A DNA stretch of 64,000 bases from an uncultured Candidatus Saccharibacteria bacterium (GTDB taxonomy: Bacteria > Patescibacteriota > Minisyncoccia > RBG-13-40-8-A), in NCBI GenBank assembly GCA_965231075.1, contig OZ246412.1, positions 91,903 to 155,902 on the forward strand, read 5' to 3'. The position numbers and the translations under genes are program-made. This document shows, one piece after another, positions 3,385 to 12,452 of the stretch. The notes under the pieces were generated by a model. That model saw only the letters and a program-made list of their open reading frames with translations, was not told the DNA's origin and made no database searches. Position 1 is the stretch's first letter, and the number at the start of each line of letters is the position of its first letter.

Positions 3385-3669
3385 ATGAAAACACAAAAAG
3401 CAAACACAGAAAAGTGTCACGATTGTGGCAAAGAAATAAAAGTTATAAATGATGAACTAAAAAATGGTAAAGTTTTAGTTTACGACGATAATGGCAAAAA
3501 AATAACAATTATCAAATGCGATAGCTGTTATGAAAAAAATCCTGGATTAACAAATTTTAAAGAATGTGAGGTTTATTCAAGAATTGTCGGATATATTCGA
3601 CCGGTACAACAATGGAACAAAGGAAAACAACAAGAGTTTAAAGAAAGAAAAGAATTCGCTTCGTGTTAA
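3385..3669 (+). CDS. stand-alone NrdD C-terminal-like domain (zinc ribbon plus glycyl-radical motif)
   Basis: CHDCGKE...CDSCYE zinc ribbon followed by SRIVGYIRPVQQWNKGKQQEFKERK. This matches the conserved C-terminal Gly-radical segment of class III anaerobic ribonucleotide reductase (RxxGY...WNxGKxxEFKDR). Only 94 aa; no catalytic barrel. Confidence 0.55.
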   Translation: MKTQKANTEKCHDCGKEIKVINDELKNGKVLVYDDNGKKITIIKCDSCYEKNPGLTNFKECEVYSRIVGYIRPVQQWNKGKQQEFKERKEFASC

Positions 3670-3724: not shown

Positions 3725-3726
3725 AA

Positions 3727-3798
3727 TAGCGCTACGGGGAATCGAACCCCGATTGACAGATTGAAAATCTGCTGTCCTAACCGTTAGACGATAGCGCC
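3727..3798 (-). tRNA. tRNA-Glu (anticodon TTC)
   Basis: Manual cloverleaf: acceptor GGCGCTA/TAGCGCT, D-stem GTCT/GGAC, anticodon loop TTTTCAA, T-arm CGGGG-TTCGATT-CCCCG. Confidence 0.8.
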
Positions 3799-3867
3799 AT
3801 AAATAATTATTTTAATCATAACAAAAACATTGATTTTAATCAAGAAAAAAGGTAAAATGAGAATGTT

Positions 3868-3938
3868 GCGGGATTAATACAGTGGTAGTATGCGACCTTC
3901 CCAAGGTTGATGCGCCAGTTCGATTCTGGTATCCCGCT
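3868..3938 (+). tRNA. tRNA-Gly (anticodon CCC)
   Basis: Acceptor GCGGGAT/ATCCCGC, anticodon loop TTCCCAA, T-loop TTCGATT. Confidence 0.8.
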
Positions 3939-3940
3939 GT

Positions 3941-4012
3941 GCCGCCTTAGCTTAGTGGTAGAGCAATTGTTTCGTAAACAATAGATCCTCAGTTCGATTC
4001 TGAGAGGCGGCT
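3941..4012 (+). tRNA. tRNA-Thr (anticodon CGT)
   Basis: Acceptor GCCGCCT/AGGCGGC, anticodon stem ATTGT/ACAAT with loop TTCGTAA, short variable arm, T-arm CTCAG-TTCGATT-CTGAG. Confidence 0.8.
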
Positions 4013-4055
4013 CAAAATTAGAATTTCTATTATTTTAGATATATAATGAAAGTAT

Positions 4056-5897
4056 ATGAAAAAAATTATGAACGAAGGCGAACATTTTCTCCACAAAAAA
4101 TATTCTGACCTCCACACTTCTCAACCCGTAGAACACGCACAACAAGAGAAAAAGAAAAAAGGAGAGTCAACATCACAAAAACCAGCAGATAAAATATCTG
4201 ACTTTCTTGAAGTAATTAAAAGAACCCACGGTCATCACGATGATCCACAAGTATTAGAAAGAATCAAAGAATATTATCATAAACAATACGTCATTAATCC
4301 CGAAGACGTCCCCGAATCATATTTTGATAATCAAAAACGTCTAGCCAGAGAACAAGGACACGGAGATATTGAAATCACCGACGAGATGCGAAAACAGGCC
4401 ACAGAGATAATCATTACCGACCAAGAATCAACTTTAGACAATTGGACGGAATATCTTTCTTCCAAAGATGCTGATGTTTATCCGGTCTGGGCAAGATACT
4501 GGGCATTCAGAAGCATGGTTAATCTTTCCACCTACGACAAAGAAAAGAAAGTATTCTCCAAACGAAAAAAAGATACAGTTGCTCCTTTTCCCGATTTAAA
4601 TCGTGAAGCATTGGCCAATGTCGTAGATATTATTACTAAAAAAGCAAAAAAAGAAAAAATATCATTAGCCGAAGATAATCCAGAATTACAAGAACTAATC
4701 AATCAAGAAAACTTCGGCAAGCTTTATGCTTACGCCATAGAAAAGATTACACCCACCGAAGTTAATGAATTAGAGATAACTGAAGGTAAATGGGTAAAAT
4801 ACAAACAAAATTCAGATCATATGCCATTGGTAGAATCTTTACAAGGATTTGGCACTGGTTGGTGCACAGCAGGAGAGTCAACGGCCGAGGCACAACTTAA
4901 AGGAGGTGATTTCTACGTCTATTACTCTAACAACAAACAAGGCAAGCCAATTATTCCCAGAATTGCTATCAGAATGCAGGGAAGCGAAATCGGAGAGGTG
5001 AGAGGCATTGCTCCAGATCAAAACTTAGATCCATACGTTAACGATATCGTTAAACAAAAACTACAACAGTTTCCTGACGGTAAACTTTACGAAAAGAAAC
5101 AAGCGGATATGAGGAAACTTACAGAAATCGATAACAAAAACAAAAAACAACAAGAATTAACCAAAGACGATTTAATTTTTCTTTACGAAATCGATTCTCC
5201 GATTCAAGGCTTCGGTTATCAAACCGATCCAAGAATAGTAGAAATACGAAAAACCAGGAATCCAATACAAGATGCACCAATTGTTTTTGAATGTGAGCCA
5301 AGTCAAATTGCCCACAATCAACAAGAAATCAATGAAAATACCAAAGCATATATTGGTCCGTTATTCGAAAATATTTTTCAATTAAATTTAGAGCACATTT
5401 ATACATCATTTCCGGAAAACAAAATCAGAAAGATGGAGACAACGATTGGAGGAAAAGACAAGACACAACTTTTAAAAGAGTTAAAAAAGAACAAAATCAA
5501 TATTGGTGATAATGCCGAATACATGATTAAGAGTGGTGATTTTACAACCTCCAAAAAACAAGAACAAATACAATTAATACGTTTAACAGTTGGTGACCTC
5601 GGTTTTCCAAATAGTGCCACAACACAACAAATATTCGATAAGGCCGAAAAATTAGGCCTAGAACTGTGTCCGGCGGAAACAGGTCCAAATTTACGACTAA
5701 ATTATTTAGATCAACCATTGGGAGAATGGTTTCGAATTGCGATGAAACAAATTACTGATGCCGATGGCTTCCCTCACGTGTTCAATCTGCATCACGTTGG
5801 CAGTGGTCTGTGGTTGGATGACTATTGGGCCCGTCCTGTCATCATGTGGAATTCTGCCCACAAGTTCGTATTCCGCTTTCGCAAGTTGAAAACTTAG
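4056..5897 (+). CDS. DGR target protein (613 aa) with C-terminal variable region
   Basis: Long ORF with no recognisable signal peptide. Its last ~45 codons (ITDADGFPHVFNLHHVGSGLWLDDYWARPVIMWNSAHKFVFRFRK) are an adenine-mutated copy of the TR. Confidence 0.8.
   Translation: MKKIMNEGEHFLHKKYSDLHTSQPVEHAQQEKKKKGESTSQKPADKISDFLEVIKRTHGHHDDPQVLERIKEYYHKQYVINPEDVPESYFDNQKRLAREQGHGDIEITDEMRKQATEIIITDQESTLDNWTEYLSSKDADVYPVWARYWAFRSMVNLSTYDKEKKVFSKRKKDTVAPFPDLNREALANVVDIITKKAKKEKISLAEDNPELQELINQENFGKLYAYAIEKITPTEVNELEITEGKWVKYKQNSDHMPLVESLQGFGTGWCTAGESTAEAQLKGGDFYVYYSNNKQGKPIIPRIAIRMQGSEIGEVRGIAPDQNLDPYVNDIVKQKLQQFPDGKLYEKKQADMRKLTEIDNKNKKQQELTKDDLIFLYEIDSPIQGFGYQTDPRIVEIRKTRNPIQDAPIVFECEPSQIAHNQQEINENTKAYIGPLFENIFQLNLEHIYTSFPENKIRKMETTIGGKDKTQLLKELKKNKINIGDNAEYMIKSGDFTTSKKQEQIQLIRLTVGDLGFPNSATTQQIFDKAEKLGLELCPAETGPNLRLNYLDQPLGEWFRIAMKQITDADGFPHVFNLHHVGSGLWLDDYWARPVIMWNSAHKFVFRFRKLKT
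5751..5886 (+). repeat. DGR variable region (VR)
   Basis: ~136 bp nearly identical to 6239..6376. Differences in the unambiguous core all fall at positions where the TR has A (VR has T, C or G), mostly in TR AAC codons. The 3' ~35 bp (gtggaattctg...ttccgctttcg) is conserved and IMH-like. Boundary nucleotides at each end are ambiguous. Confidence 0.8.
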
Positions 5898-6008
5898 AAA
5901 CCTTAAAGCTTTATAATTTAGTTTCTTTGATGCTTTGGTTCTTTGACACTTTGAAATTTTGTAGTTTTTTGATAAGATTGAATTGGGTAAATTGCATTGG
6001 ACGGTTGC

Positions 6009-6031
6009 GCCTGCTTTCTGGCAGACAGGGC
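6009..6031 (+). other. hairpin 1 between VR and TR
   Basis: gcctgctttctggcagacagggc, imperfect stem cctg..tctg/caga..cagg, followed by a T-rich run. Confidence 0.4.
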
Positions 6032-6080
6032 TTTTCAAAATTTTCTCAACAAACATAAATTGAGAGCGCAAACGGCTAAG

Positions 6081-6108
6081 CCTGCCTGTCGGCAGACAGG
6101 GTTTTTTG
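6081..6108 (+). terminator. intrinsic terminator-like hairpin 2 (stem shared with hairpin 1)
   Basis: cctgtc-ggca-gacagg stem-loop followed by ttttttg. Confidence 0.5.
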
Positions 6109-6238
6109 CGGAGTAGTTTATGTTTTGTTTCAAAAAAGAAAAAACTTGGTATATCGTGCTGGTTGATTTTAGATCACAAATAAAATACAGCCCAACATCT
6201 TAAAATTATGTGGGCAGTGCTATAGATGGCACGATATA

Positions 6239-6376
6239 TATAACTGATGCCGATGGCAACCCTAACGTGTTCAATCTGAATCACGATGACAATGGTCTGT
6301 GGTTGAATGACAATTGGGCCAATCCTGACAACAAGTGGAATTCTGACAACAAGTTCGTATTCCGCTTTCGAAAGTA
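6239..6376 (+). repeat. DGR template region (TR)
   Basis: Adenine-rich invariant copy of the VR. Sits in spurious ORF 6210..6596, where AAC (Asn) codons replace the varied VR codons. Confidence 0.8.
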
Positions 6377-6391
6377 TTATCTTTTCCGTGC

Positions 6392-6760
6392 TTATAAGGC
6401 ACGGTTTTTCTTTTCTGGATTATTTAAACTTTTTAGCCAACCACCAAATATTTTTCCAATTTCGTCTAACTTTAGTGCGATTTCTTCACATTGTTTGTGT
6501 GATATTAATTTACTCGTCCATGCCACAGAAACGAGAAACTTGAGAGCGTCCAATAAAAGAATACACTTTGGGATATTGGTTATTTTTATTTCTTGATTAG
6601 AAAAATAAGTCGTGTAAGTTAACTCCAAAAAATCCAAAAGCTTATTCTCTATTCTTTCGCCAATAGTATAACGATTGTGTTTCGGCATATGCGGAATAAT
6701 ATTTAGCCATATTAAATACGCTTCTTTGATTCTTTCCAAAATAGAAGTATTATTTGTCAT
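6392..6760 (-). CDS. avd: DGR accessory variability determinant (Avd, four-helix-bundle protein)
   Basis: 122 aa with the pattern ERIKEAYLIWLNIIPHMPKHNRYTIGERIENKLLDFLEL...ALKLDEIGKIFGGWLKSL, typical of bAvd / four-helix-bundle proteins. Lies between TR and RT. Confidence 0.75.
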   Translation of the reverse strand: MTNNTSILERIKEAYLIWLNIIPHMPKHNRYTIGERIENKLLDFLELTYTTYFSNQEIKITNIPKCILLLDALKFLVSVAWTSKLISHKQCEEIALKLDEIGKIFGGWLKSLNNPEKKNRAL

Positions 6761-7765
6761 ATGTATAATAATATCATATCAATTGAAAACTTGCTTTTAT
6801 CGTGGCAAGAATTTTTAAGAGGCAAGCGTAAAAGAAAAGATGTGGCGGAATTCTCTTTGAAGTTTTTTGATAATATTATAAAACTTCATCAAGAATTAAA
6901 ATTAAAAACCTATAAACATGGCGGGTATCAGGCGTTTAAAATAAATGATCCAAAACCACGCGATATCCACAAGGCCAGTGTTCACGATAGATTGGTTCAT
7001 CACGCCATATATCGAATTTTATATCCACATTTTGATAAAAAGTTCATTTTTGACTCCTATTCTTGCCGTTTAGAAAAAGGCACACACAAGGCGATAAATC
7101 GTTTTAGGAGTTATTATCGAAAGGTTAGCAAAAACAACACCAAAACTTGCTGGATTTTAAAATGCGATATTAGAAAATTTTTTGCTAACATAGATCATCA
7201 GGTTCTTAAAGATGTTTTGGCAAGACACATTAAAGATAAAAATGTTTTATGGCTCTTGGCACAAATTATTGACAGCTTTAATACGGAAAAGAAGAATGAC
7301 GTTGGCCTTCCGTTGGGCAATTTGACCAGCCAGCTTTTCGTAAATATTTATATGAACGAATTTGATCAATTCATTAAAAGAAATTTGAAAATCACACATT
7401 ATATTCGTTATGCGGACGATTTTATTGTTTTACACACGAACAAATCATATTTGGAAGCGATAATTATCATAATGTTTAAGTTTTTGAAAGAACAATTAAA
7501 GCTCGACCTGCATCCTGATAAAATTTTTATAAAAACTCTGTTTTCGGGAATTGATTTTTTGGGCTGGGTTAATTTTTATTATCATCGAATATTGCGAACC
7601 GCAACAAAACGTAGAATGTTAAGGAATATTAACAATAAACTTGAACCAGGGAGCATTGCATCGTATTTAGGATTGCTTTCGCACGGAAACACTTATGAGC
7701 TTTCGTCTCTTTTGACTTTATTATTTTTAAGGTATAATGATAAGTACGATGACAATTCAGGATAA
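6761..7765 (+). CDS. DGR reverse transcriptase
   Basis: RT motifs present, including YADDF (YxDD). Motif 4 reads LPLGNLTSQLF, the DGR-type replacement for the group II intron QGxxxSP. N-terminus has the DGR-RT-like IENLLLSWQEFLRGKRKRKDV. Confidence 0.9.
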   Translation: MYNNIISIENLLLSWQEFLRGKRKRKDVAEFSLKFFDNIIKLHQELKLKTYKHGGYQAFKINDPKPRDIHKASVHDRLVHHAIYRILYPHFDKKFIFDSYSCRLEKGTHKAINRFRSYYRKVSKNNTKTCWILKCDIRKFFANIDHQVLKDVLARHIKDKNVLWLLAQIIDSFNTEKKNDVGLPLGNLTSQLFVNIYMNEFDQFIKRNLKITHYIRYADDFIVLHTNKSYLEAIIIIMFKFLKEQLKLDLHPDKIFIKTLFSGIDFLGWVNFYYHRILRTATKRRMLRNINNKLEPGSIASYLGLLSHGNTYELSSLLTLLFLRYNDKYDDNSG

Positions 7766-8793
7766 AATTGAAGATTTAAAAATTAAGACCCGCCAAATGG
7801 CGGACTGTCTTTGATTTAGAAAACAAAAAACAAAGAATTATTCAATTAGAAATTTTAACCCAAGAAGGAAATTTTTGGAAGGACAGTCAAAAGGCAGCAA
7901 AAATAAGCAAGGAATTGGCGGAGCTAAGAGAAGAGGTTGATATTTGGAACGGACTAGAAAAAGACTTAATCGGGATAAAAGATGAATCAATGTTATCTGC
8001 TTGGGAAGAAAGATTTAAAAAAGAAGAATTTAAGGCACTGTTTTCGGGAAAATACGACAGAAAAAATGCAATTGTTTCCATCTATTCTGGTGCCGGCGGG
8101 ACAGAAGCACAGGATTGGGCGAACATGCTACTGCGAATGTATTCGCGTTATGCCGAAAAACACAACTTAAAATACAAATTAATTGATATTAGTTTTGGAC
8201 AGGAAGCGGGAATTAAAAACGCAGTTTTAGAGATTGATGGTGCATATGTGTATGGATATTTAAAAAAAGAAAATGGCGTGCATCGCTTAGTTAGACAGTC
8301 GCCATTCAATTCTGATAATTTAAGACACACATCATTTGCCTTGGTAGAGGTTTTGCCGGAGATTGGCAAAGACGTTGAATCGGAAATCGAAATTAAACCA
8401 GACGACCTAAAAATTGATACTTTTCGTTCTTCGGGTCCGGGTGGACAGAATGTAAATATGCGTTCAACTGCAATTAGAATCACTCACTTACCAACGAAAT
8501 TGGTGGTTGCTTGTCAGGGAGAAAGAAGTCAGGCACAGAATCGAGAAAGGGCAATGAGTATTCTTTACACGAAAATCTATCAAAAAAAACTTCAAGAGGC
8601 AGCTGAAGAAAAGAAAGAAATTCGCGGAGAGCTCCCGTCTGTAGAGTGGGGAAGTCAGATTCGTTCTTATGTTTTACATCCCTATAAAATGGTTAAAGAT
8701 CACAGAACAGAAATAGAAAGTTCTCACCCAGAAGAGGTTTTAGATGGAGATTTAGACGAATTTATAGAAGCAGAGATAAAAATCAAAAATTAA
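7749..8793 (+). CDS. prfB: peptide chain release factor 2 with programmed +1 ribosomal frameshift (frame 0: 7749..7811; frame +1: 7813..8793)
   Basis: The downstream ORF has the SPF tripeptide and GGQ motifs but lacks an N-terminus. The upstream frame MTIQDKIEDLKIKTRQMADCL ends at CTT TGA T (7809-7815), the classic RF2 CUU-UGA shift site. The +1 frame continues DLENKKQRIIQLEIL..., parallel to E. coli RF2. Start could also be ATG 7737. Confidence 0.8.
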
Positions 8794-8798
8794 TTAAA

Positions 8799-9476
8799 AT
8801 GATTGAATTTAAAAACGTTTCAAAATTTTATAACGATTGTTCGGCACTAGACAAGGTAACTTTTAGTATTAAACCAAAAGAATTTGTTTCAATTGTCGGT
8901 CGTTCCGGTGCTGGCAAAACCACGCTTTTGAAAATGCTTTTAAAGGAAGAAGAACCAAGTGAAGGAGAAATTATTGTTGATGGCAGAGATGTTGGTAAAT
9001 TAAAAAAACACGACATACCAATATACCGTAGAAAAATTGGTTCAATTTTCCAGGATTTTAAATTATTACCCAATAAAACTGCCTATGAAAACATCGCCTT
9101 TGCTATGGAGGCGGCAGGAAGAACTGAACAGGAAATCGCGGTTGATGTTCCACAAATTTTAAATTTAGTAGAATTAACCGACAAAGCCAATAACTTTCCT
9201 TGTCAACTTTCTGGCGGAGAAAAACAAAGAGTGGCGATTGGCAGGGCATTGGTTCATAAACCAGACATTTTAATGGCCGACGAACCAACAGGAAACCTTG
9301 ATCCACTACACACCTGGGATATCATTAGATTACTTTGCCGAATTAATGAATTAGGAACTACGGTTATTTTGGCAACACACGATCGAGAAATTATTAATGC
9401 ACTAGGAAAAAGAGTATTAAGTTTTGATAAAGGAAGATTGATTAGGGACGAGGAGGTTGGAAGATATATTGTTTGA
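8799..9476 (+). CDS. ftsE: cell division ATP-binding protein FtsE
   Basis: Walker A GRSGAGKTT, ABC signature LSGGEKQRVAIGRAL, Walker B ILMADEPTGNLD. Position after prfB is conserved. Confidence 0.9.
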   Translation: MIEFKNVSKFYNDCSALDKVTFSIKPKEFVSIVGRSGAGKTTLLKMLLKEEEPSEGEIIVDGRDVGKLKKHDIPIYRRKIGSIFQDFKLLPNKTAYENIAFAMEAAGRTEQEIAVDVPQILNLVELTDKANNFPCQLSGGEKQRVAIGRALVHKPDILMADEPTGNLDPLHTWDIIRLLCRINELGTTVILATHDREIINALGKRVLSFDKGRLIRDEEVGRYIV

Positions 9477-9510
9477 AAATTGAAAATTAAAAATTGTAAA
9501 TTATATTTAT

Positions 9511-10419
9511 ATGATGGAAGCAATAAAAAGAGTATTTAAGTGGGGCCTGAAAAATTTTTGGAGGAATGGTTGGTTGTCGACGGCGACAATCAGTATTATG
9601 GTTCTAACATTATTAGTGATTACGGTTCTATTGATGGTTAATGTGATTGCCAGCGCAACACTGGAAAATCTTGAAGATAAAATTGATATTAGCGTTTATT
9701 TTAAATTGGAAACTCCCGAGGCAGAAATACTAGAAGCCAAGGCTCAATTAGAAAAACTAGCCGAAGTAGAGAGTATCGAATATACCTCACAAAATGATGC
9801 CTTAATTGCGTTTAAAGAGAAACACAAAGACAACCCAGTTTTATTGCAGAGTCTGGATGAACTAGAAAACAATCCTTTAGAGGCAAGTTTGAATATTAAA
9901 GCTAATGAAACGTCGCAATATGCGAGCATAAATCAGTTTTTGGAAAGTGTGCACTACAAGAATATCATCGATAAAGTAAATTATTTACAAAATAAAAGCG
10001 TTATTGAAAAACTGGGCAAAATTATTGTCGACGTTAAAACCTTTGGATTGATTCTTAGTTTAGGTATGGCGTTAATCGTATTCTTGGTAACATTCAATTC
10101 AATTCGGTTAGCGATCTATAGTTCTCGAGAAGAAATTAATGTTATGAAACTAGTTGGGGCTAGTAATTGGTTTATTCGCGGACCGTTTATTATTGAAGGA
10201 TTGATGTATGGATTAATAGCCACAATAGTAACTATGATTTTGTTATACCCAATTTTTTATCTTGTATCTCCAAAATTATCGAATTTCTTGCCGATCGAAA
10301 ATATATTTTCTTATTTTAAATCCAACGCCGCAATGTTGGCACTATTGCTTTTTGCTGTAAGCTCAATTCTGGGGGTGTTTAGTAGTTTCATTGCTGTAAG
10401 AAAATATTTAAAAAGTTAA
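9511..10419 (+). CDS. ftsX: cell division protein FtsX (permease-like)
   Basis: Follows ftsE. One N-terminal TM, a periplasmic loop and three C-terminal TMs; FIRGPFIIEGLMYG motif. Confidence 0.8.
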   Translation: MMEAIKRVFKWGLKNFWRNGWLSTATISIMVLTLLVITVLLMVNVIASATLENLEDKIDISVYFKLETPEAEILEAKAQLEKLAEVESIEYTSQNDALIAFKEKHKDNPVLLQSLDELENNPLEASLNIKANETSQYASINQFLESVHYKNIIDKVNYLQNKSVIEKLGKIIVDVKTFGLILSLGMALIVFLVTFNSIRLAIYSSREEINVMKLVGASNWFIRGPFIIEGLMYGLIATIVTMILLYPIFYLVSPKLSNFLPIENIFSYFKSNAAMLALLLFAVSSILGVFSSFIAVRKYLKS

Positions 10420-10616
10420 AAACAAACAAGTGGACATTAAAAAATCCCGATTAATCCGGGATTTTTTAATTAATCAATAAAATATTACAATTTGTTTGCG
10501 CCCACGACAGAAATTAATGCCTTGCAAAATTATTGATAGTATGTTATAATACAAAATATAATATTTGTTCTTTTCAATAAAATATAAACGTTAAATTTAA
10601 ACCAAAGGGAGGTCAT

Positions 10617-12452
10617 ATGAACATACGGCAGTTTGTCAGGAAGGCGTGGGAGATTTATGCTCCGTTTCGAGGCAAGATGGCAATTGTATTTATTTTTATT
10701 GCCATTTCTCAGGCTCTGATGCTTGTGGCGCCATATTTTCAGGGGATGCTCATTGACTGCCTGATTCAACGGGCGCCGATGAGTAAAACATATCTGATTA
10801 TGGGCTTAGCATTGGCCGCGTTTATACTCCAAAACGTGTTTATAGGGTATTACCGTGAAGTTTTTGAAATTAAAAATCTTGACTTCGCAATCCCCGAACA
10901 CGCCAACAGGAAAACCATGGAAAAAATTCTGAGCCTATCGGTTGGACAGCACATCACCCAAAATAGTGCTATCAAGGAAAGCATTGTCCTAAAGGGGCAG
11001 CATTCTTTAACGGCGCTAGCCTACACATTAATGTACGAAGTGCTTCCAATCGTTGTTCAGGTTGTTTTTATGGTCGGTGCCTTGCTTTGGATGAGTTGGG
11101 CGCTTGGGTTGGTAGTAATTGTTGGTATGGCACTATTCGTAAGCGCTATCATTGTGGGTAATATGAAAATTCAGAAACCACTAAAGAAAGTCGAAAAAAT
11201 GTACCACAATAATTCGCGCCTACGCGGCGAAATTTATCGAAACGTTGAACTCGTTTTGGTTAATAGTCAGGAGAAACGGGCCATTCACGAAAGTGACGCT
11301 GATCTACACAGAGTCCACTTAGAATCCCAGAGCATTTGGCTTAAATTTGTAAAGTGGGCATTTGCCCGCAATATCATCGTTGGGTTAACCCGATTCGCAG
11401 TTATGGCTATCGGGATATACTATGTATATAATGGTGTTTATACGCCTGGGTACTTAGTGATCTTCTGGTCGTGGTCAAGTAATGCACTCGCCCAAGTCGG
11501 GATGGTCAGCAACCTCCAGAGACGTATTGTCGACATGTACGCATACGTCAAAAGATATTTCCGATTACTCGACTTAGAGCCAAGCGTTAAGGTGATCGCC
11601 AACCCGGTTCGCCCAGATAAATTCATGGGACGAATCGAATTCAAAAATGTCACATTTGAATATCCATCGCGCGATAAAGATCCGGACGACAATGACGAGG
11701 AAGAGGAGCCACCGACGAACATAGGCAGACAAATTGGACCAGCGCTAAAGAACGTAAGTTTTACCATAGAGGCCGGGAAAACGATTGCGTTCGTTGGAGA
11801 GTCTGGCGCTGGTAAAACCACTGCCATTCATGCGCTATTACGCGCCGAAGATGTTAAAGAGGGACAAATCACAATTGATGGCAATGATCTTCGGGTGCTT
11901 GATCTCAGTCATCTTCGTGAATCAGTTGGACTTGTCGAACAACACGTTCCACTGTTTGATGAGACGCTACGATATAATATCACTTACGCTCTCGATGCGT
12001 CAGCTGATCAAATCACCAAAGAAAAGTTAGATCAGGTTGCCGAAATGGCCTGCGTAGATCGATTCTATGACAAACTCGAAAAGGGTTACGACACTCTAAT
12101 TGGTGAGCGTGGCGTCAAGCTTTCTGGCGGGGAGCGTCAACGAGTTGGGATTGCTCGAGCACTGATAAAAGATCCCGACATTCTGATACTTGATGAAGCA
12201 ACGAGCAACTTAGATTCCCAAAACGAGGCGCTCATTAAGCTTTCAATCGAAAAAGCATCCAAGGGTCGCACCACAATTATCATCGCGCATCGATTTTCAA
12301 CAATTCGAAACGCTGACAAGATCGTGGTTTTTGAAAGGGGCCAAGTTGTTGGGGAGGGGACACATGACGAGTTGATGCTCTCGTGTTCCGAGTATCAAAG
12401 ATTGATTCATCATCAAATGAACAATTCAACAGAGGAGGAGGTGTTGAATTAA
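10617..12452 (+). CDS. ABC exporter, fused permease and ATPase (MsbA/multidrug type)
   Basis: N-terminal 6-TM domain; C-terminal NBD with GESGAGKTT, LSGGERQRVGIARAL and ILILDEATSNLD. Acidic insert DKDPDDNDEEEEPP. GC content is visibly elevated (~45-48%). Confidence 0.85.
   Translation: MNIRQFVRKAWEIYAPFRGKMAIVFIFIAISQALMLVAPYFQGMLIDCLIQRAPMSKTYLIMGLALAAFILQNVFIGYYREVFEIKNLDFAIPEHANRKTMEKILSLSVGQHITQNSAIKESIVLKGQHSLTALAYTLMYEVLPIVVQVVFMVGALLWMSWALGLVVIVGMALFVSAIIVGNMKIQKPLKKVEKMYHNNSRLRGEIYRNVELVLVNSQEKRAIHESDADLHRVHLESQSIWLKFVKWAFARNIIVGLTRFAVMAIGIYYVYNGVYTPGYLVIFWSWSSNALAQVGMVSNLQRRIVDMYAYVKRYFRLLDLEPSVKVIANPVRPDKFMGRIEFKNVTFEYPSRDKDPDDNDEEEEPPTNIGRQIGPALKNVSFTIEAGKTIAFVGESGAGKTTAIHALLRAEDVKEGQITIDGNDLRVLDLSHLRESVGLVEQHVPLFDETLRYNITYALDASADQITKEKLDQVAEMACVDRFYDKLEKGYDTLIGERGVKLSGGERQRVGIARALIKDPDILILDEATSNLDSQNEALIKLSIEKASKGRTTIIIAHRFSTIRNADKIVVFERGQVVGEGTHDELMLSCSEYQRLIHHQMNNSTEEEVLN

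Follow-up and report, generated by a model that had tools for sequence, protein, structure and literature searches.

Positions 4056-7765 of the 64,000-nt stretch of DNA analyzed here (from an uncultured Candidatus Saccharibacteria bacterium, contig OZ246412.1; hereafter "the window") form, with a probability that we put at roughly 0.9, a complete, structurally intact diversity-generating retroelement (DGR) of the candidate phyla radiation (CPR, or Patescibacteria), with the architecture called B3. DGRs are the most powerful natural protein-diversification devices, and reach their highest frequency in CPR bacteria. An initial annotation had claimed a complete DGR at this site, and all four parts are indeed present: a target gene with a variable repeat (VR) at its end, a template repeat (TR), an avd gene and a reverse transcriptase (RT) gene, in the order target-VR(+), TR(+), avd(-), RT(+). 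Architecture B3 is TR-(avd)-RT and is found in 90% of CPR DGRs (Wu et al. 2018, PMC5758913); in the window, the TR lies upstream, avd is on the reverse strand, the RT is on the strand of the TR, and the host is a CPR bacterium.

DGRs are significantly enriched in CPR bacteria, and their targets there usually have neither transmembrane (TM) segments nor known domains, with the caveat that their true non-membrane status "remains to be established" (Roux et al. 2021, PMC8144416). Since the enrichment, the B3 layout and the domain-less targets have all been published, the locus is a further example rather than a surprise. What is new here is the size, conservation and modularity of the target family, its confidently predicted but unmatched fold and the majority of family members without a DGR, as well as a covariation-supported leader RNA and a terminal stem-loop, which together define a CPR-type template RNA. 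The parts of the element are as follows.

4056-5897, + strand: DGR target gene, 613 aa; N-terminal module at residues ~1-440, probable C-terminal C-type-lectin-like domain at residues ~469-613
5752-5886, + strand: VR, codons 566-611 of the 613-codon target gene; 18/18 differences from the TR at TR adenines
6001-6035, + strand: hairpin and T-run after the target stop codon, likely the target terminator (from repeat and fold)
6067-6239, + strand: structured leader RNA directly 5' of the TR, from covariation in 21 DGR loci
6241-6375, + strand: TR, with 40 adenines and 11 AAY codons
6386-6415, + strand: GC stem-loop (6386-6404) and T-tract TTTTTCTTTTC, 11 nt after the TR, from a terminator scan
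6392-6760, - strand: avd (accessory variability determinant), 122 aa; Pfam bAvd, PHROG Avd
6761-7765, + strand: DGR reverse transcriptase, 334 aa; Pfam RVT_1, bRT as best PDB chain

VR and TR differ at template adenines only

A repeat finder returned one long direct repeat (5744-5886 versus 6233-6375), the informative core of which was narrowed by alignment to 5752-5886 and 6241-6375. The two copies are 135 nt each, with an offset of 489 and a gap of 354 bp, in agreement with the initial annotation, which had placed a VR at the 3' end of the target gene and its TR about 350 bp downstream. Within this core, VR and TR differ at 18 positions, all of which are adenines in the TR (18 of its 40), and none of the 95 non-adenine positions differs. 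If mismatches fell randomly over the 135 positions, the probability of all 18 landing on adenines would be approximately (40/135)^18 = 3e-10. The complete identity over the 95 non-adenine positions also argues against drift since the last retrohoming.

In the reading frame of the target, 37 of the 40 TR adenines occupy codon positions 1 or 2, and the 18 differences between VR and TR result in 14 amino-acid substitutions; the theoretical ceiling of the repertoire is ~10^22 protein variants. No further TR-like copies besides VR and TR were found when both strands of the whole window were searched with the A positions ignored.

The reverse transcriptase is closest to bRT and is accompanied by Avd

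The LGNLTSQ and YADDF motifs on which the initial annotation had based its RT assignment are found in the translation, the former as part of GLPLGNLTSQ, and agree with DGR motif 4 ([I/L]GxxxSQ) and with YxDD, respectively. The protein matches Pfam RVT_1 (5e-24) and the PHROG RT family (3.5e-105). Among all solved structures, its best match is chain 8ub7_A, the bRT of the Bordetella phage bRT-Avd complex (E 8.9e-41), followed by chains deposited as retron-type RTs (1e-20) and by the best chain named as a group II intron RT (5e-20), so that bRT is ahead of every other solved RT by about 20 orders of magnitude.

The Avd-type gene of the initial annotation, which had left its strand unmentioned, lies on the minus strand. 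Its product scores 59.5 bits against Pfam bAvd (E 5.3e-16, cut-off 40) and matches the PHROG family "Avd protein of DGR" at 6.5e-20; it reaches 67.9 bits against NCBIfam DivGenRetAVD, under the cut-off of 80, and has weak matches to Bbp7/Avd among PDB sequences (E 0.12-0.7). The avd and RT genes are divergent, and their start codons stand back to back at 6760/6761 with no DNA between them. The starts also abut in a relative with 83% identity (L085, 6435/6436), and are separated by 25-60 nt in other relatives.

A structured leader and a terminal stem-loop frame the template

A leader RNA of ~175 nt, missing from the initial annotation, lies directly upstream of the TR. An alignment (A5) of the ~200 nt upstream of the TR in 21 DGR loci shows strongly conserved blocks. 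In it, RNAalifold finds 35 base pairs in five helices, and for 26 of these pairs compensatory double-sided changes are seen. Standard pairs make up 94.6% of the cells at the paired columns, versus 34-47% when the partners are slid by 1-3 columns, and the covariation score is 0.627, versus at most 0.163 in controls; none of 500 shuffles reaches the observed values. The helices, all on the + strand and all taken from the RNAalifold structure of the 21 aligned loci, map to the window as follows.

6067-6077 / 6100-6110: helix P1
6149-6160 / 6228-6239: helix P2, long-range, ending one base before the TR
6164-6167 / 6173-6176: helix P3
6186-6192 / 6213-6219: helix P4a
6196-6198 / 6208-6210: helix P4b

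In the window, the loop of P1 holds an extra GC hairpin (6085-6100). A 35-nt direct repeat (6001-6035 and 6072-6106, 77% identity) carries a GC hairpin in each copy; the first copy resembles the target terminator, and the second is the P1-loop insertion, which is missing in the 20 other aligned loci.

The window contains one copy of a sequence signature of the leader, against 0 expected by chance. It was found in 20 of 86 loci, all of them DGR-bearing, and in no DGR-less locus. On viral contigs, at least 120 matches were found, 119 of them chance matches, and a single one of these contigs (L140, described below) carries the cassette. Among known RNA families, Rfam RT-16 (RF03019), an orphan RT-associated motif (Weinberg et al. 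2017, PMC5737381), gives a weak match to 6118-6246. In both, a hairpin precedes a long-range helix, inside which there is a stem with conserved AUAAAAUACAGCC...GGCAGUG, and both adjoin an RT gene; however, the match of 29.7 bits is under the gathering score (GA) of 50, and no match at E<=1 was obtained in four related loci (L061, L019, L001 and L003). The leader is at best a divergent relative of RT-16, and no Rfam family reaches its threshold.

The region following the TR is conserved as well. In 21 of 21 loci, the TR is followed by CGAAAGT..TCTTTTCC, a GC stem-loop of 6-9 bp and then TTTTTCTTTT, and the arms of the stem differ among loci yet stay complementary. This hairpin was counted by folding each sequence separately; RNAalifold on a MAFFT alignment of the region (A4), in which the 5' arms were misaligned, gave nothing. 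In the window, stem-loop and T-tract overlap the last codons of avd (6392-6415, - strand), which, on the opposite strand, encode its Lys-rich C-terminal tail (...PEKKNRAL). Since stem-loop and Avd tail share the same DNA, the stretch is under dual constraint. Probably, 6386-6415 serves as the terminator at which the TR RNA ends, as a stem-loop to which Avd binds, or as both. Of 278 DGRs that contain Avd, 207 have a predicted Avd-binding stem-loop at this place, just after the TR (Handa et al., bioRxiv 10.1101/2023.10.23.563531).

Ahead of the leader, related loci have a hairpin with a T-run, at the place of the likely target terminator of the window (6001-6035), and a promoter-like TTGAxA...TATAAAT. 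The combination of an upstream terminator and a promoter-like element suggests that the template is transcribed independently, as an RNA of ~350 nt that would extend from ~6065 to 6415. As a separate matter, we looked for pairing of the A-block of the leader with the 3' flank of the TR or with the U-tract (a "cPRT stop" duplex); the 10-12 bp that can form in the window show no convincing covariation, and this candidate was rejected.

The target belongs to a large, modular CPR protein family that is diversified in nature

A word-indexed search with the target gave more than 3,400 matches. The best 120 of these are all hypothetical proteins of ~610 aa with 54-83% identity, from hosts assigned to the Patescibacteria group, Parcubacteria, Magasanikbacteria and Liptonbacteria. 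Using phmmer over 1.84 billion representatives, we obtained 5,653 clusters (at 50% identity) at E<=1e-3, and 1,306 at E<=1e-30. Relatives occur in 228 species-representative genomes across the Patescibacteria, with hosts among the Falkow-, Andersen-, Davies-, Roizman-, Levy-, Woese-, Berkel-, Kerfeld-, Doudna-, Moran-, Kuenen- and Harrisonbacteria. As only 3 of 2.9 million IMG/VR viral contigs carry relatives, against these 228 species genomes, the family is cellular and not a phage family.

Many family representatives (among P0121-P0270) share residues ~1-435 alone and have other C-termini, with lengths of up to 1,411 aa. In a few family members, Pfam identifies leucine-rich repeat (LRR)-type, pentapeptide and Lcl_C domains, and a helix-turn-helix domain is also found among the C-terminal modules. 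This suggests a family made up of a conserved core and exchangeable recognition domains.

The same target-TR-(avd)-RT cassette follows homologous targets in other genomes. By comparing each fetched locus with itself, we found TR/VR pairs with an adenine bias of at least 80% in 26 loci, and in all 26 the VR lies at the 3' end of the target homologue, with the TR 430-520 nt off. When the open reading frames (ORFs) of 85 loci were clustered, RT and Avd were the only recurrent neighbours. The initial annotation had proposed looking for microdiversity in the VR. Such variation is seen among the relatives: of five clusters of at least 90% identity that we opened, four contain members that differ mainly in their last ~55 residues, which hold 19 of 22, 16 of 35, 22 of 36 and 20 of 21 of the variable columns, respectively. 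The variable positions in these clusters correspond to Asn or Asp codons of the TR in the window. The concentration of population variants of the relatives in the VR shows that the family is diversified in nature.

Two loci are unusual. In L015, positions 5421-8546 and 8527-11652 are a tandem duplication of 3.1 kb (99.8% identity) that spans target, leader and TR, and two target-TR modules thus precede a single avd-RT pair; this may be a recent duplication or an assembly artefact. L140 (IMGVR_UViG_3300020195_001307, 5240-8224) is a cassette on a contig classified as viral, with a target of 39% identity, the leader signature, avd and RT; the contig could be from a CPR phage or be a misclassified CPR contig.

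The target protein combines a conserved N-terminal module with a probably lectin-like C-terminus

The target itself has no Pfam, NCBIfam or PADLOC match, and no PDB sequence is matched by its family profile at E<=10. It is, as the initial annotation had suggested, a member of an uncharacterised target family, and as such an instance of an already reported problem. The fold is predicted confidently, with weak fold matches alone, to C-type lectins at the C-terminus and to GNAT-like proteins. Foldseek against the PDB returns C-type lectin domains exclusively, the best being the carbohydrate recognition domain (CRD) of Mincle (E 0.1, probability 0.8). The initial annotation had expected structure prediction to uncover a C-type lectin or another known VR scaffold; a C-type lectin is matched weakly, at the C-terminus. 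Going by the predicted structure, the C-terminal ~145 residues are probably the lectin-type variable scaffold expected for a DGR, and the N-terminal ~440 residues form a conserved module with a possible GNAT-like sub-domain.

This N-terminal part is well conserved: its 440 residues are 55-65% identical across CPR classes. Among 80 divergent members, F220, G244, C270, A277, P301, R302, E314 and G317 are invariant, and W269, G284, D285, R316 and Q322 are among the nearly invariant positions. With its conserved Cys270, Asp285, Arg302 and Glu314, the module may be enzymatic or may act as an effector, coupled to a hypervariable ligand-binding tip, an assignment in which we have low confidence. The target could, for instance, work inside the cell to sense or modify foreign or partner molecules that change rapidly.

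We also considered whether the central domain (GTGWCTAG...GDFYVYYS...PRxAIRM...EVRG) could be PcfJ-like, a PcfJ-like motif having been reported in some CPR targets (Wu et al. 2018, PMC5758913). In a Foldseek search of BFVD, PcfJ-like phage proteins take the top 3 places and 6 of the top 15 (E 0.04-0.1), with probabilities of at most 0.44 for the PcfJ-like and GNAT candidates. No match to PF14284 (PcfJ) or to an acetyltransferase Pfam family was found in 138 (58 + 80) family members, and hhalign of the target against pCF10 PcfJ (sequence-profile and profile-profile) gave no signal (probability ~1%), with a PcfJ profile that was poor and small, as the homologue search for it yielded 21 near-identical fragments. 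No support for a PcfJ-like identity was thus found at the sequence level, and the weak BFVD matches remain.

Where the target acts bears on its function. In line with the initial annotation, no signal peptide, lipobox, Sec/Tat signal or TM helix is apparent in the 613-aa protein; the maximum Kyte-Doolittle mean over 19 residues is 0.64, and the N-terminus is strongly hydrophilic. To judge from these features, the protein is soluble and probably located in the cytoplasm. Alternatively, it could leave the cell by a non-classical export route and act, on the surface or after release, as a hypervariable adhesin or effector with which the episymbiotic CPR cell binds or affects its host. Such a role would fit the dependence of CPR bacteria on partner cells and a variable domain that is probably lectin-like, and surface proteins make up most of the cellular DGR targets characterised so far (Roux et al. 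2021, PMC8144416). We nevertheless regard export as a serious but less likely possibility, given the missing signal peptide, lipobox and TM segment, the conservation and invariant polar residues of the N-terminal 440 residues, which are more enzyme-like than stalk-like, and the lack of linked secretion genes, with RT and Avd as sole recurrent neighbours.

Proposed mechanism and activity in the source organism

Following the established DGR pathway (Handa et al. 2018, PMC6182149; Wu et al. 2018, PMC5758913), we infer that a separate RNA of ~350 nt (~6065-6415) would be transcribed, consisting of the ~175-nt leader, the 135-nt TR and a short tail with the conserved stem-loop and a U-tract at its end. 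A complex of RT and Avd would bind this RNA and copy the TR into cDNA, with misincorporation opposite template adenines, and the cDNA would then replace the VR at the 3' end of the target gene. In this way, up to ~26 codons (11 of them AAY) would be re-randomised in the probable C-type-lectin-like binding domain at the C-terminus. That the DGR is active in the source organism is suggested by the intact parts, the zero drift at non-adenine positions and the diversified relatives.

Several observations weigh against a complete and active element. Among the loci with full 6-kb flanks, RT and Avd adjoin the target in 9 and not in 17, and 13 of these 17 are full-length homologues; with about two thirds of the full-flank loci lacking an adjacent DGR, diversification is not obligatory for the function of the family. 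For the source organism, the microdiversity proposed in the initial annotation was not seen: the target protein is identical in the NCBI genome and in Logan run SRR12133403, and its cluster consists of identical sequences only, with the same gene context in both assemblies. Directly after the VR, no GC-rich initiation of mutagenic homing (IMH) sequence, inverted repeat or cruciform was found; the 3' end of the VR is AT-rich, the nearest hairpin lies ~115 nt past the VR, and IMH and IMH* are distinguished by a single A-to-C change. Because a GC-rich inverted repeat after the VR is found in just 34% of DGRs (Wu et al. 2018, PMC5758913), such a repeat is not obligatory. Lastly, the abutting start codons leave no intergenic promoter space for avd and RT; either the neighbouring coding sequences contain the promoters, or transcription that starts at the promoter of the TR RNA runs antisense to avd and on into the RT gene.

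The cassette might then be a fossil, that is, a recently inactivated DGR whose parts look intact and whose target is no longer diversified in the source organism. The target protein that is identical, VR included, in the NCBI genome and the Logan assembly of another run, the missing GC-rich IMH or hairpin beside the VR and the many family members without an adjacent DGR all speak for this. We consider it unlikely, since all ORFs are full length with their catalytic motifs, the 95 non-adenine positions show zero differences, the leader and the post-TR stem-loop keep all conserved pairs, and close relatives show population diversity that is restricted to the VR. We give next to no weight to the idea that the RT stems from a group II intron, a retron or a defence system and that TR and VR are an unrelated duplication: its top NCBIfam model is indeed the group II RT/maturase TIGR04416 (144 bits versus a cut-off of 300), with matches to a retron model (50 versus 235) and to Drt as well, but all of these are far under their cut-offs, bRT is the better match by the ~20 orders of magnitude given above, the Rfam scan contains no group II intron or retron RNA family, the mismatches are adenine-only (p ~3e-10), and avd is adjacent.

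Comparison with known systems

An intact DGR of this kind is best compared to the CPR B3 DGRs of Wu et al. (2018, PMC5758913), which correspond to DGR clade 2 of Roux et al. (2021, PMC8144416). The window agrees with them in how TR, avd and RT are ordered and oriented, in its Patescibacteria host, in its chromosomal, cellular site and in a target without TM segment or known domain, with no essential difference in the features compared. With the DGR of Bordetella phage BPP-1 (mtd-avd-TR-brt), it shares homologues of both bRT (E 9e-41) and Avd, the adenine-specific transfer from TR to VR and a VR at the C-terminal end of a domain that is, here, predicted to be lectin-like. The two differ in their RNA, as the window has a large structured RNA 5' of the TR, whereas the Sp region of BPP-1 (Rfam RT-10) lies 3' of it, and the 3' flank in the window is ~40 nt before the U-tract. 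Unlike BPP-1, the window also has no GC-rich IMH or cruciform beside the VR, and its target is cellular and probably cytoplasmic, whereas that of BPP-1 is a phage tail fibre.

In concept, the target may also resemble the intracellular conflict or sensor proteins that are DGR targets in multicellular bacteria (Kaur et al. 2020, PMC7159879; Dore et al. 2024, PMC10907252). The likeness, which we infer at the level of the concept alone, would consist in a cytoplasmic location, a conserved module at the N-terminus and, at the C-terminus, a lectin-type sensor diversified by a DGR. In contrast to those proteins, the target in the window has no STAND/NTPase, protease or recognised effector domain, and its host is a CPR cell with a small genome.

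It is an explicit open question which proteins CPR cells diversify and why those lacking export signals are among the targets (Roux et al. 2021, PMC8144416). We tentatively propose, as a combined idea about which we have more doubt than confidence, that the N-terminal module is a new enzymatic or effector fold of a CPR-specific system of intracellular recognition or immunity, and that B3 DGRs have an RNA architecture unlike that of Bordetella. If true, there would be Patescibacteria-wide cytoplasmic proteins with exchangeable tips, which may be DGR-diversified and lectin-like, LRR or pentapeptide, and the place of the 3' Sp domain would be taken by a structured 5' domain of ~175 nt together with a 3' tail that is minimal and resembles a terminator, which would imply that the primer is positioned in another way. 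The locus leaves the general picture unchanged, and is a clean, fully resolved example of what appears to be a major CPR target family: its members number in the thousands, its structure is predicted with confidence, its putative catalytic core is conserved, and natural VR microdiversity is seen in relatives. With the template RNA now defined as leader, TR and terminal stem-loop, biochemical tests of target function and of CPR-type reverse transcription become practical.

Genomic neighbourhood

The element is flanked by a tRNA cluster and by prfB, as the initial annotation had described.

3726-3799, - strand: tRNA-Glu, upstream cluster
3868-3938, + strand: tRNA-Gly, upstream cluster
3941-4013, + strand: tRNA-Thr, upstream cluster
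7749-8793, + strand: prfB (release factor 2), neighbour of the DGR and outside the element; ORF0 7749-7811, main frame 7813-8793

The ATG of prfB at 7749 overlaps the 3' end of the RT gene (stop codon 7763-7765) by 17 nt, and since prfB thus starts inside the last 17 nt of the RT gene, the arrangement suggests that the two are co-transcribed. A canonical programmed +1 frameshift site (CTT TGA) is present in prfB at 7809-7814, and ftsE and ftsX follow (8799-10419). The genomic site varies within the family, even among close relatives: the cassette lies between the tRNAs and prfB in the window, and after secY-adk-map in the relative with 83% identity. Two DGR-less full-length homologues (65-66% identity; L086, 7001-8833, and L004, 6001-7824) are found between grpE and dnaK-dnaJ, directly following a ribosomal-protein/rpoA cluster, a context that is not family-wide.

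On the other side of the tRNA cluster, an ORF of 94 aa (3385-3669, + strand) matches only the extreme C-terminus of NrdD (PF13597, positions 509-562). It has a Cys-rich stretch and a glycyl-radical-like RIVGY motif, and no large nrdD gene is adjacent; judging by these motifs, it could be part of a split gene or a "spare-part" glycyl-radical protein.

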